From a bacterium (GTDB lineage Bacteria > Patescibacteriota > Minisyncoccia > Phycocordibacterales > Phycocordibacteraceae), in the NCBI GenBank assembly GCA_021794425.1, contig JAJYQV010000038.1:1-48666 (forward strand): a DNA stretch of 48,666 bases, in the 5' to 3' direction. Of the stretch, positions 2,477 to 39,790 are shown one piece after another (positions within the stretch are counted from its first letter, which is position 1; each line of letters opens with the position of its first letter). The notes under the pieces were generated by a model that saw only the letters and a list, made by a program, of their open reading frames with translations, did no database searches and was not told the origin of the DNA. The translations under genes were made by a program, and so were the position numbers.

Positions 2477-2494
2477 GTTTTGCAAAAGAAACAC

Positions 2495-2523
2495 GCGGGG
2501 CGGGCCGGAAAGGCCCGCCCCGC
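2495..2523 (+). terminator. Terminator-like hairpin after fusA
   Basis: 12-bp stem gcggggcgggcc / ggcccgccccgc with loop ggaaa, followed by gcggtttgtgtt. Confidence 0.6.
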
Positions 2524-2531
2524 GCGGTTTG

Positions 2532-2540
2532 TGTTATAGT
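2532..2540 (+). promoter_or_regulatory. Extended -10 element (TGtTATAGT) for the inserted gene 2586-2984
   Basis: TGnTATAGT immediately after the fusA hairpin. A GGAGG Shine-Dalgarno lies 7 nt before ATG 2586. Confidence 0.4.
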
Positions 2541-2585
2541 CACCCGCAGTGTGCCTCTTGGGCACGTTCTTTGGAGGATTTTGCA

Positions 2586-2984
2586 ATGGAACCGATCCCT
2601 CATTCGGGCGCGCGGTTGCCCGAGATTGACGCGAGGATTTTTGAGTATCTTGGTCCTTTAGCTTTAGCGGATTTCAAACCGCATGCGTACTGCTCATCCG
2701 GGGGCGATATCATCGTTCTCACGAAGGATTGCTCGTACAGGGCGTGCATCGCGCCTCGGGTGCACGGGATGGTCGAATTGTTTTGGGAGAACCATCGGCC
2801 GTGGTACGCCCCATGGGCAAGCAAGATTGTCGGTTTTTCATTCTACGCTCCGGCAATCACGACGAATGGCGAGGTTCCGATTGTCGACCTCCTGCGTACG
2901 TTCGAAGAGAAGTACGGAAGGTTGAAAGGATATCGGCGGCGTCTGTACAGACTCGCGAAAGGTCTCACGGTCAGTGTGTCGTGA
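2586..2984 (+). CDS. Hypothetical protein (132 aa) inserted between fusA and tuf
   Basis: Internal ATG of ORF 2424-2984, preceded by ttggaggattttgca. Has its own terminator and own -10. No family recognised. Confidence 0.55.
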   Translation: MEPIPHSGARLPEIDARIFEYLGPLALADFKPHAYCSSGGDIIVLTKDCSYRACIAPRVHGMVELFWENHRPWYAPWASKIVGFSFYAPAITTNGEVPIVDLLRTFEEKYGRLKGYRRRLYRLAKGLTVSVS

Positions 2985-2989
2985 GTAGG

Positions 2990-3013
2990 GGCGGGATGAG
3001 CAATCATCCCGCC
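2990..3013 (+). terminator. Terminator-like hairpin after the inserted gene
   Basis: ggcgggatga / tcatcccgcc stem with GCAA tetraloop. Confidence 0.5.
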
Positions 3014-3015
3014 TG

Positions 3016-3043
3016 TTGCATTCCCGACGCGCCTTGCTATAGT
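3016..3043 (+). promoter_or_regulatory. Predicted tuf promoter
   Basis: TTGCAT (3016-3021), 16-nt spacer, TATAGT (3038-3043) with an upstream TG (TGcTATAGT). Confidence 0.5.
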
Positions 3044-3164
3044 TACCCTAACGCATCTTGGCGTCGCTCTTTGGCTTGTCTGCTTCTGTGAGTCGGCGGG
3101 CCAGGGGCTTTTCCGACTCGCGTCGGATAATTCGTGATTTACTAGCACATTACCGATAATTATT

Positions 3165-4370
3165 ATGGCAACAGCAGAATTCAACCGCAGCAAGCCGCAC
3201 ATGAACGTCGGCACCATCGGCCACGTCGACCACGGCAAGACCACTCTCACCGCCGGCATCCTCAACGTCCTCTCAATGCTCACGGGCGAGGGCTACAGCG
3301 CTCGTGTTGAGAACGTCGATAACATCGACAGCGCACCTGAAGAGAAGGCGCGTGGCATTACCATTGCGCTCCACCACTCGGAGTACGAGTCGCCGAACCG
3401 GCACTACGCGCACATCGACGCGCCAGGCCACGCCGACTACATCAAGAACATGATCACCGGCGCCGCGCAGATGGACGGCGCAGTCCTCGTGGTCGCCGCG
3501 ACCGACGGCGTGATGCCGCAGACGCGCGAGCACATCCTCCTCGCGAAGCAGGTGGGCCTCAAGAAGCTCATCGTCTTCCTCAACAAGGTGGACATGGTGG
3601 AAGAGGCGGACCTCATCGACCTCGTCGAAGAGGAGATCCGCGAGCTTCTCACCAAGCAGGGCTACGACGGCGCAAATACGCCGATTATCCGCGGTTCGGG
3701 CCTCAAGGCGCTCGAAGCGAAGGACATCTCCGACGAGTGGGCGCAGAAGGTGAAGAGCCTCGTCGATACGATGGACACCTACTTCGACATGCCGGAGCGC
3801 GAGCTCGACAAGCCGTTCCTCATGCCGATCGAGGACATCTTCTCGATCGAAGGCCGCGGCACCGTCGTGACCGGCCGCATCGAGCGCGGCGTGATCAAGG
3901 TCGGCGAGGAAGTCGAGATCGTCGGCATCAAGCCGACGGCCAAGACGACCGTCACCGGCATCGAGATGTTCAACAAGCAGCTCTCGGAGGGCCAGTGCGG
4001 CGATAACGCCGGCATCCTCCTCCGCGGCACCAAGAAAGAAGACGTACACCGCGGCCAGGTCCTCGCGAAGACGGGTTCGGTCACCCCGCACACCGACTTC
4101 GAAGCAGAGGTCTACATCCTCGGCAAGGACGAGGGAGGCCGTCACACGCCGTTCTTCTCGGGCTACAAGCCGCAGTTCTACATCCGCACCACGGACGTCA
4201 CCGGCGAGGTGACTCTTCCGGAAGGCAAGGAGATGGTGATGCCGGGCGATACCGTCACCTTCAAGGTGAAGCTCACCGCCCCGGTTGCGCTCGAAGAGCA
4301 GCAGCACTTCGCGATCCGCGAAGGCGGCAAGACCGTCGGTGCCGGTGTCGTTACCAAGATCACGGCGTAA
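3165..4370 (+). CDS. tuf: Translation elongation factor Tu
   Basis: 401 aa. Motifs [22 protein letters not shown]. Confidence 0.98.
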
Positions 4371-4395
4371 GCCGGAAGGATTATCGAGGACTCAT

Positions 4396-37961: not shown

Positions 37962-38006
37962 GACTCTTCCTGCGTTCCTTCGCTTGGAATAGAACCCGAG
38001 CAGGCG

Positions 38007-39194
38007 CTAGCGGAAGTCGCGTATGGCGAATGTGATGACGACGCCGGAGAGAAGGATGAACGTGCCGACCACGAAGAAGAAGATCGGGTAGCTCCCGGTC
38101 ACGCCGACGATGACGGCTGGCACGATAGGAGCGATGACGTTCGCGATCGGCCACACGCCGCGGAAGATGCTCACCGAGGTCACGTCTTTCTCCGAGACGC
38201 GGCGGAAGAAGTGCCCCTCCGTCATGCTCTCGACGAGCGCGGCGCCGGCGCGCGTCGCGAGGAGCACTCCGACGACCGCCCACGCGGGAGAGTCCGCAGA
38301 GAGGAAGCCGACCGAGCCGAGCGCAGTACCCATCACGAGGAAGCCGGCGAACATGAGCTCCTTGTCGCCGAGGAACTTGTCGGCGAGCCAGCCTGCAGGG
38401 TACTCGATGAGCAGGTACGGGACGAGCATGACCGAGAACATCCATCCGAGCTCGCTCCACGGGATGCCGAGCACACCGTGGAGGTAGACTGGGATATAGA
38501 ACGGCGCCCAAATGTAGAAGAGGTAGAGGATGAGGTGGCCCACGGTGGCGGCGAGGAGGTCGCGGTCGCACCGGATGCAGGAGACCGACGCGCGGAGCTC
38601 TTCCTTCGTGGGCGCGCCGCCCTTAGGGAGGTCGCGCAGGCCGAAGAGGACGAGAAATGGCATGAGGGCCGCACCCGCCGCGAAGAAGACGAGCGTGTAG
38701 CTGTCAGTTCTCGCGAGGAGCGTACCGATGAGGAGCGGCGCGAGCAGGATGCCGAGGTTGCCGCCGTTCAGGAACATCGTACGCACGCGCCCGGTCGTGC
38801 CCTCGCGATCGACGGTCGCTTCAAGGAGGAGGTCGAGGCCATAGTAGACGAACGGCTGGAACGAGGCGACGAGCACGATGAAGATCATGCTCGCGATCGT
38901 CTGCGGTGCCGCCGCGGCAGCAAAGACGAGGAGCATGGAGACGAAGGTCGCGGCGAGCGCGAGCCGTTGCGCGCCGTAGCGCCGGACGAAGCGCGGGAGG
39001 AAGAGGAAGAGGACGGTGGCGATGAGGCCCCCGAGCGCGATCGCGAATCCGACGGCAGCTTGTGGGATGAACCCGAGTAGGTATGAGACGAACGTGTAGC
39101 TCACGAGGTTCATCGTGAGGGCGGTGAAGAAGTTGCCGAGGAAGAGGATCGTGCGCGCGCGCATGATGCGATGAAGCATACCATGCCGGTGCAA
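38007..39194 (-). CDS. MFS transporter (paralog 2, tandem)
   Basis: 395 aa. Shares blocks with paralog 1 such as GRVRT(L/M)F, PWSELGWMFS(L/V)ML(L/V)P, EYPAGWLAD, ATRAGAALVESMT and ...FAIRDFR. Confidence 0.85.
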   Translation of the reverse strand: MHRHGMLHRIMRARTILFLGNFFTALTMNLVSYTFVSYLLGFIPQAAVGFAIALGGLIATVLFLFLPRFVRRYGAQRLALAATFVSMLLVFAAAAAPQTIASMIFIVLVASFQPFVYYGLDLLLEATVDREGTTGRVRTMFLNGGNLGILLAPLLIGTLLARTDSYTLVFFAAGAALMPFLVLFGLRDLPKGGAPTKEELRASVSCIRCDRDLLAATVGHLILYLFYIWAPFYIPVYLHGVLGIPWSELGWMFSVMLVPYLLIEYPAGWLADKFLGDKELMFAGFLVMGTALGSVGFLSADSPAWAVVGVLLATRAGAALVESMTEGHFFRRVSEKDVTSVSIFRGVWPIANVIAPIVPAVIVGVTGSYPIFFFVVGTFILLSGVVITFAIRDFR

Positions 39195-39219
39195 CGGGCG
39201 GCGGAGAAATCCGGAACAA

Positions 39220-39246
39220 GCGCGGGCGGCTCCGCCGCCCGCGCGT
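39220..39246. repeat. GC hairpin, copy 1 of a 27-nt direct repeat flanking the RelE/Phd-like module
   Basis: gcgcgggcggcTCcgccgcccgcgcgt. Confidence 0.8.
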
Positions 39247-39251
39247 CTTTC

Positions 39252-39512
39252 CTACCCGTATATCGCGTGCGTGCCGACGTCGAGGAAGAGCACTTCGGTC
39301 TCGGAAAGGAAGATGAACTTGATGCGGTATTTGCGGTCGATACTGAATGCCCACGCACCGCGGTCCTTGCCGTGGAGCTTGTGCGTTTCGAGCGCCGGGT
39401 CGTGCGGGTTCTCTCGGAATATACGTTCCTTTTTCTTCGCGGACTCTTTCACGGGTTTCGCAAGCTTGCGGTACCGCTTATCGAAACGCGGCAGCGTACG
39501 AATCTCGAGCAT
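39252..39512 (-). CDS. RelE/YafQ-family toxin
   Basis: 86 aa. ...NPHDPALETHKLHGKDRGAWAFSIDRKYRIKFIF...VGTHAIYG. Confidence 0.85.
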   Translation of the reverse strand: MLEIRTLPRFDKRYRKLAKPVKESAKKKERIFRENPHDPALETHKLHGKDRGAWAFSIDRKYRIKFIFLSETEVLFLDVGTHAIYG

Positions 39513-39513
39513 G

Positions 39514-39741
39514 TCAGTCGAGATCGGCTAGGGAACGGAGCTTGCGCGTCTTGCCAGCGGCGTGCTCGCGCAGGCCTTCTTCGACAAGCTGGTCTAGCTC
39601 TTCGGCGGCTTTGCCGGTGAGGTAATACTCAGGCACGGCGCGCTCGGCAGCGCGGCGCAGGCTCTCGTATTCGGCGATCGGAAGGACGACGACGCCCTTA
39701 TCCTTCTCAGCGGCCTTCTTGAGTAGCGTGGCGGTGGTCAT
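39514..39741 (-). CDS. Phd/YefM-like antitoxin
   Basis: 75 aa. GVVVLPIAEYESLRRAAE. Internal ATG of ORF 39514-39918. Its stop lies 1 nt from the toxin start. Confidence 0.72.
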   Translation of the reverse strand: MTTATLLKKAAEKDKGVVVLPIAEYESLRRAAERAVPEYYLTGKAAEELDQLVEEGLREHAAGKTRKLRSLADLD

Positions 39742-39747
39742 AGCGAC

Positions 39748-39756
39748 ACTATACCA
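39748..39756 (-). promoter_or_regulatory. Extended -10 (TGgTATAGT on the minus strand) 6 nt before ATG 39741, predicted leaderless
   Basis: The reverse complement of actatacca is tggtatagt. Confidence 0.45.
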
Positions 39757-39763
39757 CAAATAC

Positions 39764-39790
39764 GCGCGGGCGGCTTCGCCGCCCGCGCGT
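39764..39790. repeat. GC hairpin, copy 2 of the 27-nt direct repeat
   Basis: gcgcgggcggcTTcgccgcccgcgcgt, with one loop difference from copy 1. Confidence 0.8.

Follow-up and report, generated by a model that had tools for sequence, protein, structure and literature searches.

Short diverged direct repeats bracket small accessory cassettes at housekeeping gene ends in a Patescibacteria genome

Members of the Candidate Phyla Radiation (CPR, Patescibacteria) have tiny genomes with few recognisable mobile elements yet variable accessory genes, which raises the question as to how small cassettes enter even their most conserved operons. The window analysed here, the whole 48,666 nucleotides (nt) of contig JAJYQV010000038.1 from assembly GCA_021794425.1, comes from a CPR genome of Paceibacteria/Kaiserbacteria type with a GC content of ~60% and holds the str/S10/spc ribosomal-protein region (fusA, tuf, rpsJ to secY, adk, map and ndk) followed by a housekeeping block. 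An earlier note on this DNA had reported that accessory genes are bracketed there by two diverged copies of the sequence at the insertion junction, with no recombinase visible, and had offered either a homology-driven route of cassette exchange or an unrecognised mechanism targeting gene ends and terminators. Our analysis finds four such pairs far above chance, and homology-anchored insertion-duplication, in which an imported gene end displaces the resident one, is probably the best explanation of these scars.

Loci from other genomes are cited by number (L001 and so on). Two sequences are nearly identical to the window, namely ENA metagenome contig L152 (99.994% identity) and contig DAHVYU010000001.1 of GCA_027331065.1 (L001/L058/L151; 99.9% identity across most of the window). 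Colinearity with the window extends to two closer relatives, L060 (82% protein identity) and L059 (88%), and the nearest homologues of its beta-CASP gene carry the names Minisyncoccota, Paceibacterota or Kaiserbacteria.

Four repeat-flanked cassettes

We compared the window with itself by BLAST, looking for direct repeats spaced 100-3000 nt apart and scoring at least 34 bits. Only four pairs and a set of tandem MFS paralogues reached this threshold, and 30 composition-preserving block-shuffled windows yielded 1 match in total. The four pairs are cases (b) to (e) of a series lettered from left to right, with Smith-Waterman scores of 24.5-32.5 against a shuffle maximum of at most 15.5 (0/300 shuffles). 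Their flanking repeats measure 44 nt in (b), 44 nt in (c), 50 nt in (d) and 27-32 nt in (e), and the inserts between them (0.55-1.4 kb) contain one or two genes each. Of the six places listed in the earlier note these four were borne out, the repeat of (b) being longer than stated; its count of five or more places was not, because just four cases are solid.

In case (b) a NYN-domain gene stands between rpsJ and rplC:
4735-4843 (+): first copy (R1), comprising the rpsJ tail (stop 4768-4770) and a spacer, then a terminator hairpin of 16 bp with a GAAA loop (4800-4835) and a -10-like box TATATACT before the NYN gene
4851-5480 (+): NYN-domain gene, the cargo (Pfam NYN, E 4e-15; GC 0.44-0.47, AT-richer than its surroundings)
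5560-5632 (+): second copy (R2), comprising a putative rpsJ-tail remnant (~5560-5580), a second hairpin (5590-5625) and a -10-like box, preceding an acidic open reading frame (ORF; 5618/5984-6466)

The hairpins (4800-4835 / 5590-5625) agree at 34/36 positions (94%), with similarity continuing to 4843 / 5632, and their two differences amount to one compensatory G-C to A-T change in a predicted stem of 15-16 bp with a GAAA loop. In L155, an 82%-identical relative, the NYN homologue (87% identity) occupies the same rpsJ|rplC site and has on either side a block made up of rpsJ tail, stop, spacer and hairpin. Case (b) appears to be a duplication of the rpsJ tail plus terminator rather than of the hairpin alone, and the window probably retains a partly deleted rpsJ-tail remnant before the second hairpin (16/21 match, by eye).

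Case (c) lies at the end of the beta-CASP gene:
22409-22485 (+): R1, functional tail of the beta-CASP/MBL gene (AIVVEPAVTWEVSKEGVRKFDGEG, then stop), whose last codons run into the cassette promoter (TTGACGGG)
22528-23258 (+): HigBA-like cassette, a 123-amino-acid (aa) toxin-like ORF and an HTH_3 antitoxin-like gene (22875/22911-23258) whose TAG stop abuts R2
23258-23325 (+): R2, displaced beta-CASP tail (AIVVEPGVTWEISKNTIRRVG, then stop), intact to a stop codon

The two copies (22409-22452 / 23258-23301) are 84% identical over 44 nt. The antitoxin-like gene has a Pfam match to HTH_3 (E 1e-14) and the 123-aa HigB-like ORF has no family match; among 5.8 billion proteins the latter has one homologue (60%), located at the same junction in L066. 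The promoter TTGACGGG ... TATAyCATC is conserved and is read into by the beta-CASP frame in both the window and L066, so that both encode a beta-CASP product of 466 aa in place of the usual 463 aa. Movement of the HigB-like cassette to other loci was considered and rejected, its sole homologue occupying the same site.

The earlier note had asked which of the two copies matches the allele of cassette-free relatives, and in case (c) it is the distal, displaced one. Against cassette-free L059/L002, R2 matches at 49 and R1 at 42 of ~62 nt, and against L060 the figures are 35 and 30 of 42 nt. R2 agrees with these relatives at the gene-wide level (~80%) and the functional R1 at its low end (67%). 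No drop in identity that would mark a longer imported tract is visible upstream of R1.

Case (d) lies at the end of the PLD-nuclease gene:
27067-27116 (-): R2, displaced PLD-nuclease tail (SQGKAEIVLSSPDQL...), stop lost, adjoining the native terminator (27030-27052) and the infC promoter
27222-27648 (+): ParE-type cassette, a 62-aa antitoxin-like ORF (27222-27410) and ParE (27397-27648), with its own hairpin (27163-27190) and a leaderless-type promoter
27649-27703 (-): R1, functional tail of the PLDc_2 gene (27649-28566), whose stop abuts the ParE stop

The copies (27071-27116 / 27658-27703) are 85% identical, with about the same identity over the longer alignment 27067-27116 / 27653-27703, and the ParE gene matches Pfam ParE_toxin (E 4.5e-13). 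The near-empty infC|PLD spacer of L059, here an 80%-identical relative, holds a 49-nt remnant of the 5' end of this cassette's antitoxin gene (10425-10473; 17 codons, then a stop), which is evidence of cassette loss by internal deletion.

Case (e) lies upstream of an MFS gene:
39215-39246 (unstranded): GC hairpin, copy 1, 20 nt upstream of the MFS start, its native position relative to MFS
39252-39741 (-): RelE-like toxin (39252-39512) and 75-aa antitoxin-like ORF (39514-39741), with promoter TGGTATAGT 6 nt from the ATG
39759-39790 (unstranded): GC hairpin, copy 2, 26/27 core identity

The only difference between the cores (39220-39246 / 39764-39790) falls in the loop of a predicted 11-13 bp stem, and the longer pair (39215-39246 / 39759-39790) is 91% identical. 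The toxin matches NCBIfam RelE_StbE with an E of 2.4e-4, under the curated cut-off. A dispersed repeat family was ruled out as the source of the hairpins in (b) and (e), each having just two copies within the window. The neighbouring MFS paralogues (36789-39194, -), of 390 and 395 aa, are arranged in tandem with a 1221-bp period and agree block by block at 71-83%, whereas only one copy is present in L059.

Taken by their family matches (ParE_toxin, HTH_3 and the sub-threshold RelE/StbE), the adjacent small gene pairs of these cassettes follow the type II toxin-antitoxin pattern. In addition, an extended -10 box (TGnTATAGT / TATGAT / TATATACT) directly follows the GC hairpin at several cassettes, with the cassette gene beginning 6-7 nt later (window 4836-4853, 27205-27224 and 39742-39758; L001 4640-4666 and 8600-8620). 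This suggests that the cassettes may be expressed as leaderless transcripts from compact terminator-promoter modules.

The remaining proposals did not hold. For case (a), at fusA|tuf, the earlier note had described a pair of promoter/leader blocks:
2532-2574 (+): copy 1, promoter/leader-like block upstream of a 132-aa ORF (2586-2984), with weak likeness to the tuf promoter/leader
3035-3074 (+): copy 2, tuf promoter (-10 TATAGT) and leader start, where the strain-variable fusA|tuf region has its right edge

The best alignment of the two scores 10 against a shuffle mean of 7.5-8.1 and is not significant, because shuffles reach the same score in 19/500 and 28/300 trials (4-9%); the duplicate was not found at the orthologous ORF in L071. 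A 9-mer repeated at the rplE stop, put forward as a possible small case, is attributable to chance, there being 118 exact 9-mer repeats within 100 nt in the window. The rplE|rpsN junction is nonetheless a true insertion site, with rplE-tail duplications in L013 and L022.

Seven more accessory segments in the window (HepT, YafQ/RelB, DUF3298 with a 113-aa ORF, a Gly-rich gene, His_Phos, the acidic ORF and ORF91) likewise yielded no detectable junction repeat. The scar is present at ~4 of roughly 11 such segments. The statement that no recombinase is visible holds at the level of Pfam, with no match to Phage_integrase, rve, Resolvase or transposase families in any called gene across the window and no recombinase domain in ~60 kb of annotated contig.

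Empty junctions, recurrence and strain differences

In order to see the same junctions in other genomes we surveyed 56 species-representative loci around the beta-CASP orthologue, which share the gene order beta-CASP, convergent rplT-rpmI-infC and PLD gene. The beta-CASP|rplT spacer measures 30-65 bp in ~16 loci and 200-3659 bp in ~25, the window having 3380 bp. From rplT to the PLD gene the distance is 806-842 bp in ~24 loci and 1435 bp in the window, or 848 bp once the 587-bp repeat spacing is subtracted. At ndk|beta-CASP, beta-CASP|rplT and infC|PLD both L060 and L059 are empty, as is L059 at RNase J|MFS, where its spacer is 100 bp as compared with 1207 bp in the window; across the beta-CASP|L20, infC|PLD and RNase J|MFS junctions the two relatives have 29-120 bp. 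At the occupied sites of the window relatives possess a single gene tail each, and the segments between the repeats are true insertions. Of the comparison that the earlier note had called for, short empty junctions were obtained in relatives at the positions of (c), (d) and (e), and no occupied/empty polymorphism was found.

The scar recurs INDEPENDENTLY elsewhere, in related species around unrelated cargo. In the window, L035, L055 and L028 the cassette is followed by a displaced beta-CASP tail that extends from around the AIVP codons to a stop, and the cargo differs at each (HigBA-like, GrpB, PaaX-like and AAA_33 kinase respectively); these displaced tails keep the family C-terminal motif and a stop codon. 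As a control the tail motif was sought on the wrong strand, giving 0 matches in 914 kb. Other gene ends are involved as well: in L012 a PemK toxin is flanked by a copy of the PLD tail, in L013 a ParE pair and in L022 a PaaX-like gene are flanked by rplE tails, and in L041 a 225-aa ORF has beside it the duplicated tail of a 188-aa gene. At the ndk|beta-CASP junction of L005 it is the beta-CASP promoter and first 12 codons that flank an MNT/HepT pair. The fusA|tuf junction of L001 holds four cassettes with three partial fusA-end copies between them, and fusA-end copies are also present in L074 (two events) and L108. The corresponding shuffled controls were without a single pair, both in 884 kb and in 689 kb.

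A comparison of near-identical strains shows directly that cassette loci have recombined with diverged DNA. Between strains that are 99.9% identical the segment comprising fusA and its array has been replaced, with the switch at the tuf promoter: fusA and its terminator (window 9-2525, L001 2126-4637) are just 88% identical, and identity to L001 rises from 88% to 99.9% at window position 3038. This 88% segment is a recombination tract whose right edge lies inside a cassette hot spot. Among CPR relatives the fusA|tuf spacer ranges from 67 to 5240 bp. A second replacement concerns window 47134-48320 and L151 6223-7046, where unrelated cassettes of 1187 bp (two low-complexity ORFs) and 824 bp occupy the same place, with terminator hairpins on both sides and no flanking duplication, in strains otherwise 99.9% identical.

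A number of further accessory segments were seen in the window. Between ndk and beta-CASP, positions 20364-21093 form a ~690-bp insertion relative to L060 with an apparently orphan HepT-like gene (20567-20920, -). A 58-aa ORF at 24937-25113 corresponds to a C-terminal fragment (78% identical) of a PaaX-like, Cas2-fold gene of 194 aa. The complete gene is found a short way downstream of beta-CASP in L055, L008, L049 and L016, and in L022 it occupies rplE|rpsN. A YafQ/RelE-like toxin and RelB/DinJ-like antitoxin (35275-35813, -) lie between the HAD hydrolase gene and a second HhH-GPD gene; the toxin 3' end overlaps that of the HAD gene by 13 nt, and no junction repeat was detected. The S10 operon is interrupted between rplB and rpsS (9200-10640) by a DUF3298 gene (9286-10062, -) and a 113-aa ORF (10185-10526, +), with an inverted repeat at 9208-9248. 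A free-standing LAGLIDADG_3 endonuclease-like gene is located at or just past the right end of the window (48276-48666 and on).

Origin of the repeat copies

Whether the copies are duplicated target or imported sequence can be approached through the kind of differences between them. The earlier note had observed that in (c) and (d) they differ mainly at synonymous positions, and each indeed has 4 synonymous and 2 non-synonymous codons. Pooling 11 gene-tail pairs from 10 genomes, 42/62 differing codons (68%) are synonymous and 20 non-synonymous, and the differences fall 12/10/54 on codon positions 1/2/3 (71% third position). In a neutral simulation with random mutation of the same sequences the synonymous share was 21%, and none of 2000 runs exceeded 42%. 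The two fusA tails of L074 differ at 9/75 nt, all synonymous, and encode identical peptides. The data therefore argue that most of the divergence arose while both copies worked as gene ends, in different genomes, which supports the suggestion that they are not fresh target-site duplications and that homologous gene ends were brought in with the cassettes. The homology in most coding-tail pairs ends at the last sense codon or at most 3 nt past the stop, and stop codons differ even where the repeat is 93/93 identical (L001, TAG and TAA). The canonical fusA terminator, seen also in the window, comes after the functional fusA end in L001, where the displaced copy has another stop and flank.

Under homology-anchored insertion-duplication, DNA from a related member of the Paceibacteria would enter the cell carrying a conserved housekeeping gene end with its stop codon, its terminator and an adjacent small cassette, perhaps by natural transformation, and would use the short conserved gene end to recombine with the resident chromosome. 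One route would be a single crossover of a trimmed, re-circularised fragment, and another a one-sided homologous anchor combined with an illegitimate joint within ~100 nt of the homology border. Either would leave the gene intact and ending in the imported copy, the cassette next to it and the resident end displaced downstream as a pseudo-end, and successive events would build arrays. Host RecA and DNA uptake would be enough, with no need for an element-encoded recombinase. Only short repeats (~27-95 nt) would persist, since longer ones would presumably be lost by pop-out, and toxin-antitoxin cargo may further disfavour loss.

The first of these routes has an experimental precedent. In an Escherichia coli assay of homology-facilitated illegitimate recombination, 56/60 events arose by a single crossover after the molecule had been shortened and re-circularised, and gave duplications of 109-950 bp (Amarir-Bouhram et al. 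2011, PMC3240628). Natural competence has been shown for Saccharibacteria (PMC10187176), and genes for competence and recombination have been reported as common in the phylum. Just past the right end of the window lie type IV pilus genes (PilM, PilO-like and PilB-like ATPase) and a ComFC-like phosphoribosyltransferase-domain gene (L151 1-5904). Of the two readings in the earlier note, the homology-driven route is the better supported. A dedicated mechanism aimed at gene ends and terminators found no support and nothing requires one. Whatever sequence stands at the junction is what becomes duplicated, in L005 a promoter and 5' end, and only ~4 of ~11 accessory segments are scarred.

Several observations weigh against insertion-duplication by imported gene ends. 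The direction of import is clear only for case (c) and weak for L055; for (d), L035 and L028 the relatives compared are too distant to tell the native copy, and as far as they go L035 and L028 point the opposite way as to which copy was imported. In four species the left boundary of the beta-CASP repeat varies by no more than 17 nt (-63 to -80), a clustering that random fragment ends would not predict, and cassette stop codons fall exactly at several junctions. Most expanded junctions have no repeat, just 4 of ~25 at beta-CASP|L20 having one. Several cassettes have long been resident at their site (L155, L066 and the scar in L059); the process must therefore be rare, and vertical descent together with decay could account for some of the pattern. 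Neither a circular form nor an occupied/empty polymorphism was found: three short contigs with the HigB-like gene are colinear with the chromosome, without terminal redundancy or alternative junctions, although rare circles could escape assemblies. The PaaX-like family is bordered by different gene tails in L055 and L022. Finally, low-GC CPR lineages have short direct repeats around core ribosomal-protein genes, so that not every short-range repeat in CPR marks an acquisition. The latter repeats, of 38-136 nt, flank rplW-rplB, rpsS and rplP and look like repeated intergenic elements:
Low-GC CPR repeat sites: L094 6293-8018; L097 3533-6440; L085 14477-15068; L083 13434-14431; L106 10665-12656

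A bolder possibility, which we consider rather unlikely, is that the cassettes are recombinase-free selfish elements that use a portable housekeeping gene tail (EF-G, S10, L5, beta-CASP or PLD) as an 'attachment site'. They would be excised as circles through the flanking repeats, spread among CPR by natural transformation and re-homed by RecA into the same gene end, with toxin-antitoxin addiction guarding against pop-out. If so, the clustered repeat boundaries and stop-exact junctions would be adaptive features and not accidents.

The observations that do not fit leave some room for target duplication, template switching and an old scaffold. Among the alternatives to an imported gene end, true insertion accompanied by long duplication of the target survives best, although we think it unlikely. 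Here a break-and-fill event or staggered cut would copy 30-100 nt of the recipient, the copies being identical at birth and diverging afterwards. Several pairs are indeed nearly or fully identical (97-100%; L001 93/93, L041 75/76 and L019 35/36), a finding explained equally well by donors from within the population or by gene conversion. The differing tails around the PaaX-like gene suggest that the repeat is target-derived, and the repeat lengths and lack of mobility genes resemble those of restriction-modification insertions (PMC2853133). A decaying pseudo-copy after local duplication would however be expected to show ~37% synonymous differences overall, by rough estimate, as against the 68% observed. 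The end of homology at the stop codon, the differing stops of otherwise identical repeats and the position of the canonical fusA terminator in L001 on the functional end rather than the displaced one also speak against a copied target.

Two further explanations appear to us distinctly improbable, and to the same degree. By microhomology-mediated template switching, a nascent strand would copy foreign DNA near a gene end and re-enter a few dozen bases upstream, duplicating the interval, with survivors being those that keep both neighbours intact. This fits the short and variable repeats and the range of junction sequences that can be duplicated, promoter and 5' end included, and there are possible microhomologies of 3-4 nt at fresh junctions (aTGAccgaagg occurs twice in L001). 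It predicts identical copies at birth, contrary to the synonymous-biased divergence and the differing stops and flanks. The second is an old landing-pad scaffold, in which each junction was duplicated once in the distant past and inherited vertically while cargo turned over and gene conversion homogenised the copies. The similar left boundaries of the beta-CASP repeat in four species, the resemblance of each R2 to the R1 of its own lineage, the NYN cassette with both repeats common to the window and L155 at ~82% DNA identity, and homologous cassettes or scars at the same site in L066 and L059 would all follow from it. Most relatives are however empty, with ~16/40 minimal at beta-CASP|L20, and a scaffold would therefore need many precise losses; conversion alone does not account for the synonymous bias, and R2 of case (c) resembles other species more than its own R1.

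A site-specific recombinase acting in trans from elsewhere in the genome (Xer-like, integron-like or other) on att-like gene ends and hairpins is very improbable: inspection covered one contig of the genome, the arrays at fusA|tuf look accretion-like and the hairpins of (b) and (e) superficially resemble attC, but the repeat differs at each locus (rpsJ, beta-CASP, PLD, fusA and rplE tails, two unrelated hairpins and a promoter) without a visible common core and ranges from 27 to 95 nt in length, the (b) hairpin arms are by inspection unlike the attC R''/R' motifs RYYYAAC/GTTRRRY, and the ~60 kb of annotated contig encodes no such domain.

Relation to known systems

The scar offers a testable entry route for small cassettes into the ribosomal-protein super-operon (fusA|tuf, rpsJ|rplC and rplE|rpsN) that would need only host recombination and DNA uptake. 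It marks sites of acquisition and can point to the foreign copy of the gene end and the rough age of the event. Its features are shared in part with several systems. Like integron cassettes and integrase-less attC clusters, the segments described here are small, promoter-proximal and sometimes arrayed, with hairpin repeats at boundaries and toxin-antitoxin cargo common. No IntI or attI is present in the annotated contig however, and the repeats are locus-specific and mostly coding tails; the scars are not an integron. Integrase-mediated insertion at a gene 3' end, with the element carrying a replacement end, is familiar from phage 21 and e14 in icd and from tRNA-targeting islands. In the icd type the functional end is element-borne, the differences are mostly synonymous and the original is kept as a pseudo-end beyond the element; of the present scars, case (c) shows this pattern, its R2 being closer to relatives. 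Those elements encode a tyrosine integrase and span kilobases to tens of kilobases, whereas the present cassettes have no recombinase.

Campbell-type single crossover likewise leaves an insert flanked by a duplicated homologous segment without site-specific recombination (PMC3240628). The laboratory events started from linear DNA and duplicate 109-950 bp, compared with 27-95 nt in these natural cases, for which no circular form was observed. A conserved upstream anchor, an orphan 3' end downstream of the acquired module, arrays and the lack of an integrase are also features of C-terminal displacement in Rhs and contact-dependent inhibition (CDI) loci and in the type VI secretion system (T6SS) of Vibrio (Jackson et al. 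2009; Kirchberger et al. 2017, PMC5361080), and orphan ends or arrays of this kind are seen in window cases (c) and (d), L001 and L074. The displaced ends of Rhs/T6SS arrays are alternative toxin tips with immunity genes that serve functional diversification; those described here are same-function housekeeping tails (EF-G, S10, L5, beta-CASP and PLD), accompanied by cargo with no relation to the anchor gene.

Together with C-terminal displacement, the closest likeness is to restriction-modification units inserted with long target duplications (Nobusato et al. 2000; Furuta, Abe & Kobayashi 2010, PMC2853133), whose scar has the same structure. These are small selfish cassettes between direct repeats longer than 30 bp (46-423 bp), often over a gene 3' end, without integrase or transposase and by a mechanism not known; the cassette-free genome holds a single copy, and the cases are mostly from naturally competent bacteria. 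The window resembles them in having a colinear relative without the insert, flanking direct repeats that are not multi-copy, a single gene tail in relatives and no mobility gene. It differs in that its inserts contain no restriction and modification genes (they hold the NYN gene, the HTH/HigB-like pair, ParE and the RelE-like pair), that the cargo described here comprises toxin-antitoxin, NYN, GrpB, PaaX-like and uncharacterised genes in CPR hosts with repeats of 27-95 nt, and that the divergence argues for one copy being an imported allele. What is new here is the host phylum, the cargo, the placement within the most conserved operons and the codon-level evidence of an imported allele. A signature known from restriction-modification and polymorphic toxin loci is thereby extended to toxin-antitoxin cargo, and the synonymous-biased divergence bears on a question left open for the restriction-modification units (PMC2853133), namely whether such repeats are target duplications or imported alleles.

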